A stretch of 64,000 nt of DNA from Candidatus Nealsonbacteria bacterium. GTDB taxonomy: Bacteria > Patescibacteriota > Minisyncoccia > Minisyncoccales > JANBVM01. Below are positions 22,180-47,799 of the stretch, one piece after another. Both the position numbers and the translations under genes were made by a program. The DNA is taken from assembly GCA_047456315.1 (NCBI GenBank), contig CP179889.1, positions 512,776 through 576,775 of the forward strand. Direction: 5' to 3'. The notes beneath the pieces are model-generated. The model ran no database searches. It saw nothing but the letters and a program-made list of their open reading frames with translations, and was not told the DNA's origin. Every line of letters begins with the position of its first letter. Within the stretch, counting starts at the first letter, position 1.

Positions 22180-25100
22180 TTAAACATCAAGATTCTTTAC
22201 CTGTTTAGCATAAGACTGAATGAATTTCTTTCTTGGCAGAACCTCTTTGCCCATTAAAATATCAAATATCCTGTCTGCTTCTCTTTCATCATCAATATTA
22301 ACCTGAAGCAAGGTTCTATTTTCTGGATCCATGGTAGTATCCCAAAGCTCTCCAGCATTCATTTCTCCTAAACCTTTATACCTTTGAATAGAAATATTTG
22401 TGTTTTTCCCAAAGGACTTTATTATCTCCTTGCTCTGACTTTCAGTATAAGCATAATCTATTTTTTTACCAGCCTGGATTTTATATAAAGGCGGCTGGGC
22501 AAGATATAAGTATCCTCTTTCAATTAAAGGTTTAAAGTAACGGTAGAACAAAGTCAAGAGCAGTGTTTTAATATGATTACCATCTGAATTATGCAATAAA
22601 GTTCCGCCAAGACCAGCTACAAAGTTTTGGTCTCCGCAGACTGAAAAATCATAAACAAAATTATCAGGATTTTTAACTTTCTCAATATTTCTGACCTTAA
22701 GACCAATAAAATCTTGAGAGATTGGCTGTAAATATTTACCAATTAGTTTTTTGTAATTTACTTTTTTAAGGTACTCTTTTAACTTCAAACTATCCTTATG
22801 ATTCAACCAGACATTTTTAGTCTCAACCAAATATTCAACAGTAGACACTGACAAATCATAAGACTTAAAGTTAGAACGGATAAGTTTTCCATCTTTCCTA
22901 AAATGATTTTTAGATCGAGACACACTATATGCTGGAAATATTCCCCACTGCCTAAAAATAGTCATTATACCCTGAATAAGTTTTTCAGAAGACAGTCTCC
23001 AGCCATAAATAGCTTTTCTTGGCTTGTCTTTTGGCCAAACTGTAATAAAACCATCACTATGAAGCAAACCTTCAATTAAAGATTCTTGAACTGACTTTTC
23101 TACATTAAAAAAGGTATTAGGAATAAACTTTTCATTACATTTCTTTTTCAAAAGACCTAACTGAGTTAAAAGCAACTTAAATTCAAGAGAATGAAAATGC
23201 AGGTCAATGCTATTAGTATTTTTAGCATAATCTAAAATAGCTTTGGCTCCAAATTTCTTTTCAATAATTTGAGAAAGCTTTTTAATATACTGTTCTGAAT
23301 TTTCCTTATTTAAAGAAATTGAAAATCTGTTTGGATTTTTTTTCTGAAAAGCAGCATAACCATCACCTAAATAAAACCCGATTAAATAACTCAAATCTTT
23401 ACCCAGTTTAAACTTAGTTTTAATAAGCCTAGAATGATTTCTGTAATAGAATTGAACTTCTTCAGCGCTCTTTCCTTTCCAGCTCTTTATTGGAATATAA
23501 AGATTATAATCCAAACCCTTGGAATTTATTTCTATTTGGCTTAAATACTGCTTAAACTGATGAAATCTAGGCATTACATTATCGATCTTCTGTTCCCACT
23601 GCTGAACAACTCTATCATAAACTTTAATCAATTCTCCCATCACTCGTCTGGATATTCCAGTCAACTCTCTTTTTTTCTGAAGTTGATTCCAAGAACCAGA
23701 ATTTAAATCACACCAAGCCATTGCTGGCACTTGTTCTATACGATTCTGAGGAACTTTGACAGAAATATTCTCGAGACCAGAATTTAAAATAGCGTCTTCC
23801 AAATCCATAACATATTCTTTTTCTTGATGAGGAAGCTTTTTAGGAAAAACTAAAATATCTCCTTTTTTAACTTTATCTCCTTTTTTAGTAACAACCTTTC
23901 CATTTTCAAAAACATAAATACTATGGCAAGAAGTTATTTTAATAGGATAACCACAATAAGTCTTGATTTCATATAAAGGAGTACGACGAGGATGACGAAT
24001 AGTCTGATATATATCTTTTAAATCTGATTTCTTATTCTTGGAGTTATATGTTAAAACCTGATATTTTAAAGCATCATCACAATTTTCAATAAATTCCCCA
24101 ACTTCAGTTAAGAAAAACTCCTGTTTTTCTTTATTATAAATAAGAATTGGAGTATCACCAGTTACACTATCAGCATCACACATTATAACAATCCTGTGAT
24201 ATCTGGCTTTTTCAATATCAAAGTCATCAGAAACTGCAGTTCCTAATGCAATAATCAATGACTTAATTTCTTTAGAATTTAATATCTTATCAAGACGAGC
24301 TCTTTCAACATTCAAAATCTTACCACGCAAAGGTAATATAGCCTGAAAATGACGATCCCTGGCCTGACGACTTGAACCTCCGGCTGATTCTCCTTCGACA
24401 ATAAATATCTCTGATTCTTCTGGATTTCTGGAAGTACAATCTGCAAGTTTACCAGGCAGCGCCAAACCATCTAATATCTTTTTTCTTAAAATAGTATCTT
24501 TAGCAGCTTTAGCGGCTTTTCTTGCTTTCTGAGCTAAAGCAAATTTCAGAATAATTGCCCTGGCATCATTTGGATTTCTTTCCAAAAAATCAGCTAAAGC
24601 AACGCTTACAACTTGCTCAACTATTGGCTTGGCTTCAGAATTACCCAGTTTTGATTTTGTCTGGCCTTCAAACTGAGGATCTTTTACCTTAATTGAGATT
24701 ACTGCTGTTAAACCTTCTCTTGTATCTTCTCCAGTAAAGTTGCTATCAGTTTCTTTTAAGAATCCATTCTTTTTTGCGTAGTCATTAAAGGTTCTTGTTA
24801 GGGCAGACCTGAACCCAGTTAAGTGAGTGCCGCCTTCCTGAGTATGAACATTATTAGCAAAAGTTTTTTCAACACATTCAAGATCATCAGTATAGCGAAA
24901 AGCTGACTCAACCAAGATTCCATTCTTTTCTCCCGAACAATAAAAGATGGTTTGGTTAACAGGTGGAGATGTTCTGATTAGGTATTTAATATAAGAAATT
25001 ATTCCTCCTTCAAAATAAACAGCATAAGTTTTATGAGGCTTAACTCTTTGGTCAAAAAAAGTAATCCTTACTCCTTTTGTTAAATAAGCTTGCTGACGAA

Positions 25101-25719
25101 GGTAATTAAGTATTTTCTTTTCATTGAATTTTAATGTGTTAAAAATCTGCTCATCAGGTTCAAAGGTAATAATTGTTCCAGTGGTTCTAGATTTACCCAC
25201 TTTTCTGACCGCTGTTTTTTTCTTGCCCCGGGCATATTCCTGAGAATATCTGTAACCATCCCTGCAAACTTCTACTTTCATGTATTTAGATAAAGCACAA
25301 ACAACTGAGATACCAACACCATGAAGTCCCCCGCTGGTAACATAAGCTTTTCCTCCAAACTTACCTCCAGCATGAAGGGTTGTCATTATTGTTTCCAAAG
25401 CTGATTTTTTTGTTAAGGCATGTCTGTCAACAGGAATTCCTCTTCCATTATCTTCAACCTTAACTCTGTTATTGGGCAAAAGCCAAACTTTAATATCATC
25501 ACAATAACCCATTATCGCCTCATCAATACTATTTCCAACAATTTCTTTTATTAAATGATGCAAACCATCAGGACCTGTTGAACCAATATACATTGCTGGT
25601 CTTTTTCTGACTGGCTCCAATCCCTTCAATACAAAAATATCCTTAGCAGTGTAAGTTGATTTAGTTTTTTTAACTCTTTTTGCTCTAGCTTTTACTTTCT
25701 TTTTAGTTTTTTTAGCCAT
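22180..25719 (-). CDS. gyrB: DNA gyrase subunit B interrupted by an in-frame intein
   Basis: GHKL ATPase (EIVGNSIDEA, NGRGIP, GGLHGVG) and TOPRIM EGESAGGS. The extein junction ..IVIMCDAD | SDGNHIKTLLLTLFYR restores the DxDxDG motif. The ORF track starts at 25749; MAKKTKKK at 25719 is the more likely start. Confidence 0.92.
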   Translation of the reverse strand: MAKKTKKKVKARAKRVKKTKSTYTAKDIFVLKGLEPVRKRPAMYIGSTGPDGLHHLIKEIVGNSIDEAIMGYCDDIKVWLLPNNRVKVEDNGRGIPVDRHALTKKSALETIMTTLHAGGKFGGKAYVTSGGLHGVGISVVCALSKYMKVEVCRDGYRYSQEYARGKKKTAVRKVGKSRTTGTIITFEPDEQIFNTLKFNEKKILNYLRQQAYLTKGVRITFFDQRVKPHKTYAVYFEGGIISYIKYLIRTSPPVNQTIFYCSGEKNGILVESAFRYTDDLECVEKTFANNVHTQEGGTHLTGFRSALTRTFNDYAKKNGFLKETDSNFTGEDTREGLTAVISIKVKDPQFEGQTKSKLGNSEAKPIVEQVVSVALADFLERNPNDARAIILKFALAQKARKAAKAAKDTILRKKILDGLALPGKLADCTSRNPEESEIFIVEGESAGGSSRQARDRHFQAILPLRGKILNVERARLDKILNSKEIKSLIIALGTAVSDDFDIEKARYHRIVIMCDADSVTGDTPILIYNKEKQEFFLTEVGEFIENCDDALKYQVLTYNSKNKKSDLKDIYQTIRHPRRTPLYEIKTYCGYPIKITSCHSIYVFENGKVVTKKGDKVKKGDILVFPKKLPHQEKEYVMDLEDAILNSGLENISVKVPQNRIEQVPAMAWCDLNSGSWNQLQKKRELTGISRRVMGELIKVYDRVVQQWEQKIDNVMPRFHQFKQYLSQIEINSKGLDYNLYIPIKSWKGKSAEEVQFYYRNHSRLIKTKFKLGKDLSYLIGFYLGDGYAAFQKKNPNRFSISLNKENSEQYIKKLSQIIEKKFGAKAILDYAKNTNSIDLHFHSLEFKLLLTQLGLLKKKCNEKFIPNTFFNVEKSVQESLIEGLLHSDGFITVWPKDKPRKAIYGWRLSSEKLIQGIMTIFRQWGIFPAYSVSRSKNHFRKDGKLIRSNFKSYDLSVSTVEYLVETKNVWLNHKDSLKLKEYLKKVNYKKLIGKYLQPISQDFIGLKVRNIEKVKNPDNFVYDFSVCGDQNFVAGLGGTLLHNSDGNHIKTLLLTLFYRYFKPLIERGYLYLAQPPLYKIQAGKKIDYAYTESQSKEIIKSFGKNTNISIQRYKGLGEMNAGELWDTTMDPENRTLLQVNIDDEREADRIFDILMGKEVLPRKKFIQSYAKQVKNLDV
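22588..24168 (-). mobile_element. Intein (527 aa) with LAGLIDADG homing-endonuclease domain inside gyrB
   Basis: Starts SVTGDTPILIY (Ser1, AGT at 24168-24166). Block B is TSCHS. LAGLIDADG motifs are LIGFYLGDGYA and LIEGLLHSDGF. Ends VYDFSV..NFVAGLGGTLLHN followed by Ser (+1, TCA at 22587-22585). Confidence 0.85.
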
Positions 25720-25771
25720 AATTTTTAACTGAATTAAAATAAAAAACAATTCTTAACCAGAACTAATACTG

Positions 25772-28924: not shown

Positions 28925-29548
28925 TTACTGAGCCTTTTGGGCAAGATATTGTCGGCCTTTTCCAACATCTGTATTAATCTGAACTTTTTGAGCACATAAA
29001 GGACATTCTTCTTCGTCAAAAGCTTCAAAGGTTATATTAACCAAGGAAAACACTTCTGGCACCCCTAAGTCTTGACTTGTGATTGCGCCACGATTCCAAA
29101 GAAAGCCTACACCTACTACTATTCCATCCAAAGCCTTTACAGCATCTACTGTTTTTTGAACTGAACCTCCAGTAGTTGTTATATCCTCAACAACTAAGAT
29201 TCTTTTTCCTTTAACGCACTTATCATAGCCACGTTTGAAAATCTTTGTGTTGTTTGGTCCATCTTCAGAATAAATTGCCAAGATGTCCTTGCCAGAGAAC
29301 TGCGTTAGAGTAAAAGCTGTCCATTGGGTTAAAACTACACCACCTATAGCTGGACCAGCAACAATTTCTATGTTTTTGTCTTTAAAGTGTTCGGCTATTC
29401 TTTCGCAAAGCAATTTTACCTTTAAGGGAAACATGTAAAGAGAGTCCTTGTTTACATATACTTCACCGTGCTTACCAGAAGTATATATAAAATGCCCTTT
29501 TAATATTGCTCTTGTTTCTTCAAAAATCCTTATAATTTCTTCTTCCAT
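28925..29548 (-). CDS. pyrE: Type I phosphoribosyltransferase, orotate PRTase-like
   Basis: 207 aa; PRPP loop ILVVEDITTTGGS and N-terminal GHFIYTSGKHGEVYVNKD. Confidence 0.65.
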   Translation of the reverse strand: MEEEIIRIFEETRAILKGHFIYTSGKHGEVYVNKDSLYMFPLKVKLLCERIAEHFKDKNIEIVAGPAIGGVVLTQWTAFTLTQFSGKDILAIYSEDGPNNTKIFKRGYDKCVKGKRILVVEDITTTGGSVQKTVDAVKALDGIVVGVGFLWNRGAITSQDLGVPEVFSLVNITFEAFDEEECPLCAQKVQINTDVGKGRQYLAQKAQ

Positions 29549-29697
29549 TTTTAATTACCTAATAAATTTTAAAGAGCTGAATAAACTCCTGTTGTCCAAG
29601 ATTAAACAATTAAACAAGAGTCGTCAATAGAAGAATATATGAAAAAATATTTTTATATTTCCATACCTTATATGTTAAAATTAGCAAAATACATATC

Positions 29698-29908
29698 TAA
29701 AAAAGAAAAAGCAGGAGCTGTGGAGGAATAAGGTTATGTATTGACCTTAAAATCTCTAACTCCTGCATGATTGTAGGGATACTGAAGTTACTGTTAAATA
29801 TTTGAATCCAAAATTTTAAAAAGTGATAAAGCGATATAAGTCTCGCAGGCGAAATCTAATATCATGATGTTAGGATTCAAAATTCAACAGCCCAGTATCC
29901 TTTCTACC
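29698..29908 (-). ncRNA. Unclassified structured small RNA (about 210 nt) with its own promoter and terminator
   Basis: Minus-strand unit. Predicted TSS is near 29908. Rod-like helix: GUAG/CUAC, GGAUACUG (29893-29900) / CAGUAUCC (29777-29784), CUGUU/AACAG (29886-29890 / 29791-29795), UUUGAAUCC/GGAUUCAAA (29873-29881 / 29801-29809), GAUAU/AUAUC. A 3' hairpin GCAGGAG...CUCCUGC (29760-29766 / 29711-29717) is followed by UUUUUCUUUUUU. Confidence 0.5.
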
Positions 29909-29914
29909 TTTTTT

Positions 29915-29944
29915 ATTATACCACGCATTTTCTTATTTTGTCAA
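29915..29944 (-). promoter_or_regulatory. Strong sigma70-like promoter TTGACA-18-(TGg)TATAAT driving the small RNA
   Basis: TTGACA is the reverse complement of 29939-29944. TATAAT is the reverse complement of 29915-29920, preceded by TGg (extended -10). Confidence 0.6.
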
Positions 29945-29972
29945 TCACAAAACCCGAGCTACCAACTCGGGT
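29941..29972 (-). terminator. Hairpin terminator closing the tRNA/hydrolase transcription unit
   Basis: Minus strand ACCCGAG-ttggtag-CTCGGGT followed by TTTTGTGATTG. Confidence 0.5.
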
Positions 29973-29986
29973 CTTAATGCTTACTC

Positions 29987-30031
29987 TATACAATTACATC
30001 CGATTCTATACAATTTTATATAATGCGGGGA
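29987..30031. repeat. Direct repeat copy A (31 nt + GCGGGGA) of the tRNA-Asp 3' end and flank
   Basis: tatacaattacatccGattCTatacaatttt (29987-30017), a 7-nt insert atataat, then gcgggga (30025-30031). Matches 30715-30752 with 3 mismatches. Confidence 0.75.
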
Positions 30032-30144
30032 TGGTTGGACATAGTTAGAACTGGCTACTGGTCTAGGTTTTCGACCCTAAAAACAGTAAAATCTTTTTAG
30101 TTTCTTGAGGAACGGACTTTGTTAGAACCTTTTTGGTAGGTAAT

Positions 30145-30669
30145 TTATTTTAAAATACATTTCTCAAGCATAGGAAAATCAATAGCGTCAAAGTGATCAT
30201 CCCCATCAACTTTAATCAATTTACCATTAACATAGGTAGCTAAACTCTCTCCATGTTCCAATGGCACCCAAGGGTCTTTCGTTTGATTTAAAATAAAAAA
30301 TTCTTCACAGTTCTGTTTAATTTTCTGCCAATCAAAATTTGGTTCAAAAAAATTATTTGTTGGTTTAAAACTCAACTTCTCGATTGGTGTTGCAATTAAA
30401 ACACATCTCTTTATTTTTTCATCTATTTTTTCTAAGTAATTCAATATAACAGTTCCACCTAAGCTATGACCAACAAGAACTGACCTGCTGTCAGGGTCAA
30501 AATCTTCAATCACCTTTATCCATTGTTCTTTTTTAGGATGGAAAGTATTAGGCATATCAGGAACAAAAACTTTATGACCTAACTTTTCTAATCTCTCCTT
30601 TTCTTCTAAAAACCAATGTTCTTTTGAATTACTTTCCCATCCATGAAGTATTAGAATTCTTTTATTCAT
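30145..30669 (-). CDS. Alpha/beta serine hydrolase, YdeN/RBBP9-like
   Basis: 174 aa; ILILHGW, nucleophile elbow GHSLGG, C-terminal DDHF. Confidence 0.75.
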   Translation of the reverse strand: MNKRILILHGWESNSKEHWFLEEKERLEKLGHKVFVPDMPNTFHPKKEQWIKVIEDFDPDSRSVLVGHSLGGTVILNYLEKIDEKIKRCVLIATPIEKLSFKPTNNFFEPNFDWQKIKQNCEEFFILNQTKDPWVPLEHGESLATYVNGKLIKVDGDDHFDAIDFPMLEKCILK

Positions 30670-30922: not shown

Positions 30923-30936
30923 TCTACCAAAGAATG

Positions 30937-31007
30937 TTGCGGTGCCCCGAATTGCACGGGGGTCTCCAGCTTATGGGACTGGCGAGGTACTACTCCTCTA
31001 CACCGCG
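30937..31007 (-). tRNA. Initiator-like tRNA-fMet (CAU), atypical loops
   Basis: CGCGGTG TA GAGG AGTAGTA CCTC G CCAGT CCCATAA GCTGG AGAC CCCCG TGCAATT CGGGG CACCGCA A. The C1xA72 mismatch and A11:U24 pair are initiator hallmarks. The anticodon loop has C33, and the T-loop is UGCAAUU. Confidence 0.7.
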
Positions 31008-47266: not shown

Positions 47267-47527
47267 TTATTTGTATAAATTACTATGGCTATCAATAGCA
47301 ATAAAAACGGCTCTATCTCTGACCAGCCGTTTATATACTGCCCTTAAATCCCCTGTCACGTTAATGCTTCTATATCCTTTATACTTTCCTTTTAAAGGAT
47401 GATTATTAAGAATTGGGTCAAATTCATCTTTAAAGAAAATCTGTATTTTTTCTTTAAATTTATTTCTCTCTCTTTTCTGTAATTTTTTGTATTGTTTTTC
47501 AAAATTCTTATGAAATCTGATATTCAT
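47267..47527 (-). CDS. Type II toxin, RelE/YafQ-family mRNA interferase
   Basis: 86 aa; FEKQYKKL...NNHPLKGKYKGYRSINVTGDLRAVYK. 4-nt overlap with the upstream antitoxin. Confidence 0.8.
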   Translation of the reverse strand: MNIRFHKNFEKQYKKLQKRERNKFKEKIQIFFKDEFDPILNNHPLKGKYKGYRSINVTGDLRAVYKRLVRDRAVFIAIDSHSNLYK

Positions 47528-47799
47528 AAGCTGTCGAGATAATCATTAGCTTCATCGCCAGAAGAAAACGCTGGGGAAAGATTTTTTCCCTCCTCAATAT
47601 CTTTCTCAACCTTACCAATAAAAAGTTCGAATTCAGGAATCATTCTAGGAATAGCCGAAAAATATACTTCTCTAGTTCTAATAAAATTTCTAAGAGAAGC
47701 ATTGATAACATCACTTAAAGAAAGACCCAGCTCTTTGGCGAGTTTTTGAGCATTATTTTTTATTCTTTTATCTGTTTTAATATTAATTACCTCTTTCAT
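47524..47799 (-). CDS. Type II antitoxin, RelB/DinJ-like (ribbon-helix-helix)
   Basis: 91 aa; INIKTDKRIKNNAQKLAKELGLSLSDVINASLRNFI. Confidence 0.75.
   Translation of the reverse strand: MKEVINIKTDKRIKNNAQKLAKELGLSLSDVINASLRNFIRTREVYFSAIPRMIPEFELFIGKVEKDIEEGKNLSPAFSSGDEANDYLDSL

Follow-up and report, generated by a model that had tools for sequence, protein, structure and literature searches.

A candidate lineage-specific structured RNA gene upstream of a PyrE-like phosphoribosyltransferase gene in Candidatus Nealsonbacteria

The window analysed here is a 64-kb stretch of the genome of Candidatus Nealsonbacteria, a member of the Candidate Phyla Radiation (CPR), and amounts to ~10% of the whole genome (~650 kb). 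On its minus strand, two tRNA-Met genes and a tRNA-Asp gene are followed by a gene for a 174-aa serine hydrolase and by a repeat element with its trailer and a hairpin, and then by the element with which this report is concerned, a predicted RNA unit of ~210 nucleotides (nt; 29908-29699, minus strand) with a G+C content of 32%. Beyond it, on the same strand, lie a gene for a PyrE-like phosphoribosyltransferase (PRTase), which has its own terminator (28911-28897), pheS, pheT and gyrB. An initial annotation had described the unit as an orphan promoter-to-terminator unit for a structured non-coding RNA, and this description stands, with the promoter, the fold and the terminator-like end all in place.

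The PheS protein encoded in the window is 100% identical to a protein of a Candidatus Nealsonbacteria metagenome-assembled genome and 99% identical to PheS of a sister strain with a complete 675-kb genome (CP179890.1; L008), the next relatives showing at most 86% identity. Three of these relatives (L001, L009 and L011; 84-86% PheS identity) were used for comparison. The window organism occurs in run DRR463592, and exact-protein look-ups for the hydrolase and the PRTase, made in search of further strains, found neither on record. The region from tRNA-Asp to pheS differs in content in every genome examined, and the RNA unit is placed at the border between the core genes (PRTase-pheS-pheT) and this hypervariable region beside tRNA-Asp.

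Promoter, fold and coding potential of the RNA unit

The promoter of the RNA unit scored 12/12, with the additional TG, in a consensus scan and was the sole such site in 27-33 kb. Furthermore, a pattern search for perfect TTGACA-N16-18-TATAAT sites returned two in the 64-kb window, against 0.03 expected by chance. The initial annotation had called this promoter the best in the window; its sequence and position are borne out, and its rank is corrected to a tie with the other perfect site (47204-47177), the RNA-unit promoter alone having the TGn extended -10. The predicted transcription start site (TSS) follows from the position of the -10 element. Upstream, the terminator proposed at 29972-29952 proved to be a real hairpin (z -5.1), which is missing from the list of the consensus terminator scan. 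The coordinates of these features are collected in Table 1.

Table 1. Predicted features of the RNA unit and its borders, in order of transcription (positions in the window)
Feature	Position	Strand	Basis or detail
Upstream hairpin and UUUU, closing the preceding unit (hydrolase and repeat element)	29945-29980	-	Fold; -17.7 kcal/mol
-35 hexamer TTGACA	29939-29944	-	Consensus scan; identical in the sister strain
Extended -10 TGgTATAAT, 18-nt spacer	29915-29923	-	TG 29923-29922, TATAAT 29920-29915
Predicted TSS (~29908) and rod 5' arm	29873-29908	-	GUAG 29907-29904, 28-nt arm 29900-29873
Apical domain, 63 nt: unpaired UAACAUCAU, GAUAU...AUAUC hairpin, U-rich single strand	29810-29872	-	Unpaired probabilities
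Rod 3' arm	29773-29809	-	RNAfold
3' hairpin, 56 nt, with 9-bp G+C-rich basal stem GCAGGAGUU/AGCUCCUGC	29711-29766	-	Fold
U-tract UUUUUCUUUUUU; with the hairpin, an intrinsic-terminator-like 3' end	29699-29710	-	Sequence and fold
PRTase promoter/leader module (outside the RNA; delimits the unit)	29549-29642	-	Alignment; model from L001/L011

In the predicted fold, nt 2-36 of the transcript pair with nt 100-136 to form an irregular 32-bp rod, composed of the helices GUAG/CUAC and GGAUACUG(G)/(U)CAGUAUCC, followed by a run of 20 bp with the perfect UUUGAAUCC/GGAUUCAAA in it; a 6-nt linker separates this rod from the 3' hairpin. All helices named in the initial annotation (these three, CUGUU/AACAG and GAUAU/AUAUC) were reproduced by RNAfold, as were the unpaired apical region and the GCAGGAG...CUCCUGC hairpin with the U-tract that follows it. 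The terminator hairpin is absent from the consensus scan list because its loop is longer than 8 nt.

The minimum free energy (MFE) of the whole RNA is -64.7 kcal/mol, compared to -38.2 +/- 4.3 kcal/mol for shuffled sequences (z -6.2), and none of 200 shuffles folded as well. Taken separately, the rod reaches -42.7 kcal/mol (z -6.9) and the 3' hairpin -22.0 kcal/mol (z -4.7). Against a background of 6386 sliding 142-nt windows on both strands (mean MFE -21.6 kcal/mol, standard deviation 6.6), the only better folders were the tRNA cluster, a second unit with a perfect promoter and three G+C-richer coding stretches (32.3-32.5, 38.7-38.9 and 52.1-52.3 kb). The fold is also strand-asymmetric, the minus strand being 9 kcal/mol better than the plus strand (-42.7 vs -33.4 kcal/mol).

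The absence of a convincing open reading frame (ORF), claimed from the outset, was confirmed in that no ORF of at least 30 aa occurs on the transcript strand of the unit. Two 23-codon ORFs lie inside it, starting at AUG 29864 and AUG 29768, the latter (MQELEILRSIHNLIPPQLLLFLF) running through the terminator hairpin to a stop just past the U-tract. Neither has a Shine-Dalgarno sequence or a membrane-spanning hydrophobic stretch, and a 2-nt loop indel in the sister strain frameshifts the AUG 29864 ORF, which argues against coding. These two ORFs bear on the idea that the unit is an mRNA for a very small protein or a type I toxin, held untranslated by 5'-3' pairing. Long-range pairing of this kind in a short, strongly transcribed RNA is typical of such mRNAs, and the unit resembles hok, fst and txpA in being a compact structured transcript with its 5' end paired close to the 3' end. 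In contrast to them, it lacks a conserved hydrophobic ORF and an antitoxin RNA gene, and no convincing antisense promoter was found (the best plus-strand match scores 9/12). We regard a toxin mRNA as scarcely credible.

Related genomes and the control region of the PyrE-like gene

A cmscan search of the whole window against Rfam at the gathering threshold returned tRNAs only, with no 6S RNA, and a permissive scan of 29500-30200 (E<=10) gave no match to 6S, phosphoribosyl pyrophosphate (PRPP)/ykkC, purine, PyrR or leader families. The only matches within 29698-29944 at E<=10 were to small nucleolar RNAs, at chance level (E 0.7-2.7), and a scan of eight related loci likewise returned tRNAs and chance-level matches only. 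These results agree with the initial annotation, in which the RNA could not be placed by eye. A retron non-coding RNA (msr-msd) was rejected, since no reverse transcriptase adjoins the unit, its neighbours being the serine hydrolase, the PyrE-like PRTase and PheS/PheT. Searches outside the related genomes were also negative: an exact 27-mer of the RNA had no match in metagenome contigs, three exact patterns had none in viral contigs, and blastn searches for distant similarity in phages and plasmids returned only AT-rich chance matches (E ~0.9).

The homology and covariation analysis that the initial annotation had proposed located a copy in the sister strain, and found no diverged homologs in the related loci and contigs searched and no significant conservation of structure. 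The two strains are 97.7% identical over 29958-28800, a segment that includes the whole RNA unit (itself 98% identical). Their homology begins at 29958, within the 3' arm of the upstream hairpin; upstream of this point they are wholly different, the sister strain having an HD-domain gene, a repeat element and a 100-aa ORF in place of the hydrolase. Four substitutions and two 2-nt indels separate the two RNAs. In the sister strain, an A>G change turns an A-U pair of a solid helix into G.U, a G>A change in the terminator hairpin turns a U.G pair into U-A, and a G>C change removes a terminal wobble pair; a C>T change and one indel fall in the loop of the apical hairpin, whose stem is one pair longer, and the other indel falls in the linker. 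The fold is kept (-63.9 vs -64.7 kcal/mol), and promoter, rod and terminator are intact in both strains.

At the syntenic place in the three relatives we found other genes. In L001 a homologous TTGACAAAT promoter drives a 122-aa ORF, which is followed by pyrF; L009 has a 77-aa ORF, and L011 an 86-aa ORF, DUF134 and pyrF. None of these small ORFs is related to another or to the RNA. An origin of the RNA as a decayed copy of such an ORF was rejected, as tblastn found nothing, and so was an origin as a diverged copy of the neighbouring repeat unit, which had no nhmmer match in 29698-29910. A covariance model of the rod, run with filters off on the eight related loci (70 kb), gave a match at L011 5068-5196 (22.6 bits), which we rejected as a homolog on account of ~25 non-canonical pairs; it overlaps the 3' end of pyrF, the pyrF terminator and the PRTase promoter.

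The gene downstream of the unit encodes a PyrE-like PRTase (TIGR01367, 128 bits; best PDB match an orotate phosphoribosyltransferase), and its ATG (29548) lies 150 nt beyond the U-tract, just as first described. The ~95 nt upstream of this gene can be aligned with the stretches before the PRTase homologs of L001 and L011 and before L001 pyrF, with a mean identity of 77%, and the shared features comprise a T-run, TTGAC, ATTTAA, a small hairpin CAGGAGUUU...AGCUC and a ribosome-binding site. A hidden Markov model (HMM) built from L001 and L011 alone recovers 29634-29544 with an E-value of 1.7e-6. The PRTase orthologs of L001 (84% identical) and L011 have pyrF and a short leader upstream, and no RNA. 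Since the conserved module lies downstream of the RNA terminator and is present also in genomes that lack the RNA, the control region of the PRTase gene appears to be self-contained, with the RNA as a separate unit inserted upstream of it; the promoter activity of the module is itself predicted from its sequence.

This leader module was found at 29642-29549 in the window, at 2080-2165 and 2910-2995 in L001 (duplicated almost exactly, with one copy before pyrF) and at 5135-5222 in L011. The CUCC arm of its hairpin, (G)CAGGAGUUU...AGCUCC, could pair either with its own GGAG arm or with the GGAGG ribosome-binding site, which makes the module a candidate element for controlling the translation of pyrimidine genes in these CPR bacteria. 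An origin of the 3' hairpin of the RNA unit from the pyr leader hairpin of L001, with which it shares an 11-mer (ATGCAGGAGTT), was not supported: local alignment was no better than with shuffled sequences (41 and 28 of 300), and the leader HMM reached only E=21 at the 3' hairpin.

The same data bear on the possibility that the unit is a cis-acting attenuator of the PyrE-like gene, in which a ligand, pausing sensitive to uridine triphosphate (UTP) or translation of the 23-codon ORF at AUG 29768 would decide between a stop at the hairpin and U-tract and read-through, as in Escherichia coli pyrBI and pyrE. Promoter, terminator and PyrE-like gene follow one another on the same strand; the lone inter-strain substitution in the terminator-spanning ORF is synonymous (CAG>CAA); the unpaired UAACUUC of the rod 3' arm could, judged by eye, pair with GGAGUUA of the terminator 5' arm; and the -10 element of the PRTase gene itself is weak and unlisted by the consensus scan. 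A terminator before a pyrE-like gene and a short ORF across its hairpin are likewise what pyrimidine attenuators have (the PyrR site, RF00515, as well as E. coli pyrBI/pyrE). Unlike them, however, the unit has no PyrR motif and no Shine-Dalgarno sequence before the leader ORF, it is absent upstream of the orthologous PRTase genes, a separate conserved promoter and leader intervene, and its 140-nt rod is without counterpart. Moreover, the stability of a 32-bp closing helix is far beyond what a switching aptamer would allow, and a distance of 150 nt from attenuator to start codon is atypical. Given the self-contained control region and the lack of a match in Rfam, the unit is unlikely to act as a riboswitch or attenuator; because of the pyrBI-like ORF across the terminator, the pyrE-like gene downstream and the weak internal -10, we retain this role as an improbable reading rather than dismiss it.

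Interpretation of the RNA unit

Taken together, these data lead us to a tentative reading of the unit as an independent, lineage-specific small non-coding RNA (sRNA) gene of Candidatus Nealsonbacteria, which we consider quite possible, if somewhat short of probable. The unit has the generic features of an sRNA gene, namely its own promoter, its own terminator and no coding potential, and it is present in two strains and absent from the other sequences searched. Single promoter-to-terminator units are, furthermore, the pattern of the neighbourhood, where the PRTase gene too has its own terminator. Among the three identities put forward in the initial annotation, the novel sRNA is thus the one that survives, a compact 6S-like RNA and a riboswitch or attenuator of the PRTase gene being unsupported. 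Species-specific, intrinsically terminated sRNAs in variable or island regions include DicF, IsrK and the Spr RNAs of Staphylococcus aureus. The RNA unit resembles them in its own promoter, its size (100-250 nt), its non-coding nature, its 3' hairpin and U-tract, its narrow range and its siting in an accessory region by a tRNA gene. It differs from them in its body, an unusually long and near-continuous 32-bp duplex rather than short hairpins with an open seed, and in its host, a CPR bacterium, with no target or partner protein assigned.

As an sRNA gene, the unit would be transcribed from its consensus sigma-70-type promoter with extended -10, starting near 29908. The ends of the first ~135 nt would then pair into the 32-bp irregular rod, presenting the 63-nt apical domain with two exposed single strands, and the long 3' hairpin and U-tract would stop the transcript at ~29699, yielding an RNA of ~210 nt. 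In the mechanism that we prefer, this RNA would be a stable, trans-acting regulator in which the rod may protect the RNA or serve as a stalk for RNase III processing, and the exposed apical strands or the CCUCC-bearing 3' hairpin might contact a target RNA or protein.

Transcription, the ends of the transcript and a trans-acting function are points that we infer, and several observations weigh against this reading. The two near-identical copies are the only ones known; a covariance model of the rod recovered no others in 30 sources (228 kb of related contigs), and there is no homolog at the syntenic place in the relatives with 84-86% PheS identity. The RNA diverges between the strains by 1.9 substitutions per 100 nt and two indels, which is close to what the third positions of codons show in pheS, pheT and the PRTase gene (2.2-2.9 per 100). 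The preservation of the structure is not significant, since 10% of equally large random mutation sets leave the MFE just as well preserved. By this comparison the divergence appears about neutral, and purifying selection is not demonstrated; given such a rate and such fold preservation, there is no positive evidence of constraint, nor is there any of decay. A search for trans targets, in which four accessible segments of the RNA were compared with 66 translation-start regions in the window, gave none that beats shuffled controls, a result that says little as these start regions come from ~10% of the genome. Finally, confinement to two near-identical strains and a hypervariable siting weaken the case for an important conserved function, and a transcribed relic would fit just as well at a place where genes turn over rapidly.

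Such a relic or selfish remnant is the main rival explanation. It would consist of an ordinary cassette promoter transcribing a leftover inverted duplication or a palindrome resembling a miniature inverted-repeat transposable element (MITE), with the hairpin and U-tract merely ending transcription before the PRTase promoter. Consistent with this, the consensus promoter that follows the repeat element, be it homologous or analogous, serves unrelated small ORFs in the three relatives and the 100-aa ORF in the sister strain, the arms of the rod are ~80% alike and carry indels, like an ageing inverted duplication, and the turnover of the region, the near-neutral divergence and the lack of homologs found beyond the species would all be expected. 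The unit is also similar to MITEs and to repeats of the Correia and repetitive extragenic palindromic (REP) type in that ~125 bp with imperfect inverted arms of 28-33 bp lie between genes. Unlike these, the unit comes with a perfect promoter and a terminator of its own, intact in both strains, and is single-copy in the 64-kb window with one copy in 13 kb of the sister strain (77 kb of the species); no target-site duplication is present, the flanks GUAGAAA and CUACAAU being inverted and not direct. Nor is the RNA related to the adjoining dispersed repeat family, and tblastn with the neighbouring small ORFs reveals no protein remnant. We consider a relic somewhat unlikely.

A further reading holds the unit to be a compact, CPR-specific form of a 6S-type protein-sequestering RNA, or another decoy that binds RNA polymerase or a different protein. 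Its length class (~140-210 nt), rod shape with one large unpaired region and strong housekeeping-type promoter recall 6S RNA (Rfam RF00013), and no 6S RNA is annotated or detected in the window, which, at ~10% of the genome, leaves room for a canonical 6S RNA elsewhere. In contrast to 6S RNA, however, the unit has no covariance-model match at E<=10, and in both the MFE and the centroid folds its unpaired region is apical and capped by a helix of ~12 bp, too short for the second of the two long helices that should flank a central bubble. A 6S RNA would also be expected to be conserved, and the near-neutral divergence of this RNA and its absence from the syntenic loci of the relatives and from 228 kb of related contigs seem at odds with that. 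A 6S-like role therefore seems very unlikely indeed.

As to the small RNA gene that we favour, its interest lies in its host. CPR bacteria (Patescibacteria) have tiny genomes thought to be poor in regulation, and we found almost nothing in the literature on their regulatory RNAs: no paper combining CPR with 6S RNA and no described CPR sRNAs were found, no paper was found to mention the accessions, and a paper on Patescibacteria metatranscriptomes contains nothing on non-coding RNA. If strongly expressed, the RNA would be among the first concrete sRNA candidates in the CPR, and it could be tested in existing metatranscriptomes of enrichment cultures. Limited to one species and with no sign of constraint, it is unlikely on its own to settle a question of general scope.

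A second rod-like unit, the dispersed repeat and other observations

The other perfect promoter of the window, TTGACA-16-TATAAT at 47204-47177, heads a second unit (47204-46915, minus strand) with a predicted transcript of ~250 nt (47172-46915). It too folds as a rod, with the 5' end paired to the terminator region (-87.1 kcal/mol, z -6.4). Inside it is a leaderless ORF of 66 aa (47169-46969), which is matched in the database by this same genome only and is uncalled even in the sister strain with 99% PheS identity. The unit could represent another structured RNA limited to the strain, or else an orphan gene for a small protein. Immediately adjoining it upstream (47267-47799, minus strand) is a pair of genes for a RelB-like antitoxin (91 aa) and a YafQ/ParE-like toxin (86 aa). 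One could imagine the two units as members of a class of strongly transcribed RNAs of ~210-260 nt with 5'-3' paired rods in the strain-specific accessory genome of Nealsonbacteria episymbionts, acting as precursors processed by RNase III or as double-stranded RNA or protein decoys; we hold this to be very improbable. Such a class could include, for example, a permuted 6S-like mimic that engages RNA polymerase, or RNAs for conflict with phages or the archaeal host.

Directly after the stop codon of the hydrolase gene lies a dispersed, highly conserved repeat element (30134-30025, minus strand), followed by a trailer to 29973. The consensus of its last unit, of ~75 nt, is AGATTTTACTGATTCTACGGCTGAAAACCTAGACCAGTACTCAGTTCTAACTATGTCCAACCATCCCCGC, and several copies consist of two tandem units of this length. 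We found ~48 copies in 30 related contigs (copies in L001 and L008-L035), with up to five on one 35-kb contig, each located 0-210 nt downstream of a co-oriented ORF. The ORFs that precede the copies are highly diverse and include DUF5667 (eight cases), hydrolases, YceG, HD, methyltransferase and others. The element belongs to no Rfam family and has no consensus secondary structure, and a weak match to the Na+ riboswitch inside it, obtained in the permissive Rfam scan, is probably due to chance.

The terminal sequence of the element, GTCCAACCATCCCCGC, is similar to the tRNA-Asp 3' end (GTCCCGTCGTCCCCGC), and most copies then share the trailer of tRNA-Asp (AAAATTGGATAAAATTGTATGTAATTGTATA, with AATTGKAT every 10-11 nt) and its terminator (CGCCAGAAAGGCGGTTTTTT), as seen in the window at 30760-30685 compared to 30033-29973 and also in L008, L013, L020, L023 and others. 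Between tRNA-Asp and the first repeat element, each genome has a different gene (a hydrolase, an HD or a DUF5667 gene), and no integrase was seen near this region. The pattern has the look of cassettes being exchanged or accreted at a tRNA-Asp-like site. The hydrolase gene (30145-30669) recurs with its trailing repeat in L028 (SDBT01002510.1, 8990-9514), 4.7 kb from the tRNA-Asp of that genome and with a protein 90% identical, which is consistent with gene and element having moved or been retained as one unit. The repeat may have wider interest for how reduced genomes organise gene ends and exchange genes.

Two observations concern the neighbouring genes. The third tRNA of the cluster, a tRNA-Met (CAT) at 30936-31007 (minus strand), was found by ARAGORN and missed by the whole-window Rfam scan at the gathering threshold; the identical sequence of the sister strain scores 48.6 bits, and filtering in the larger search probably accounts for the omission. 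Lastly, the GyrB protein encoded at 22180-25749 (minus strand; 1189 aa) carries an intein (PF14890, residues 549-1054), which is also present in the sister strain, whereas in the relatives with PheS identities of 84-86% GyrB lacks an intein and measures 654-667 aa.

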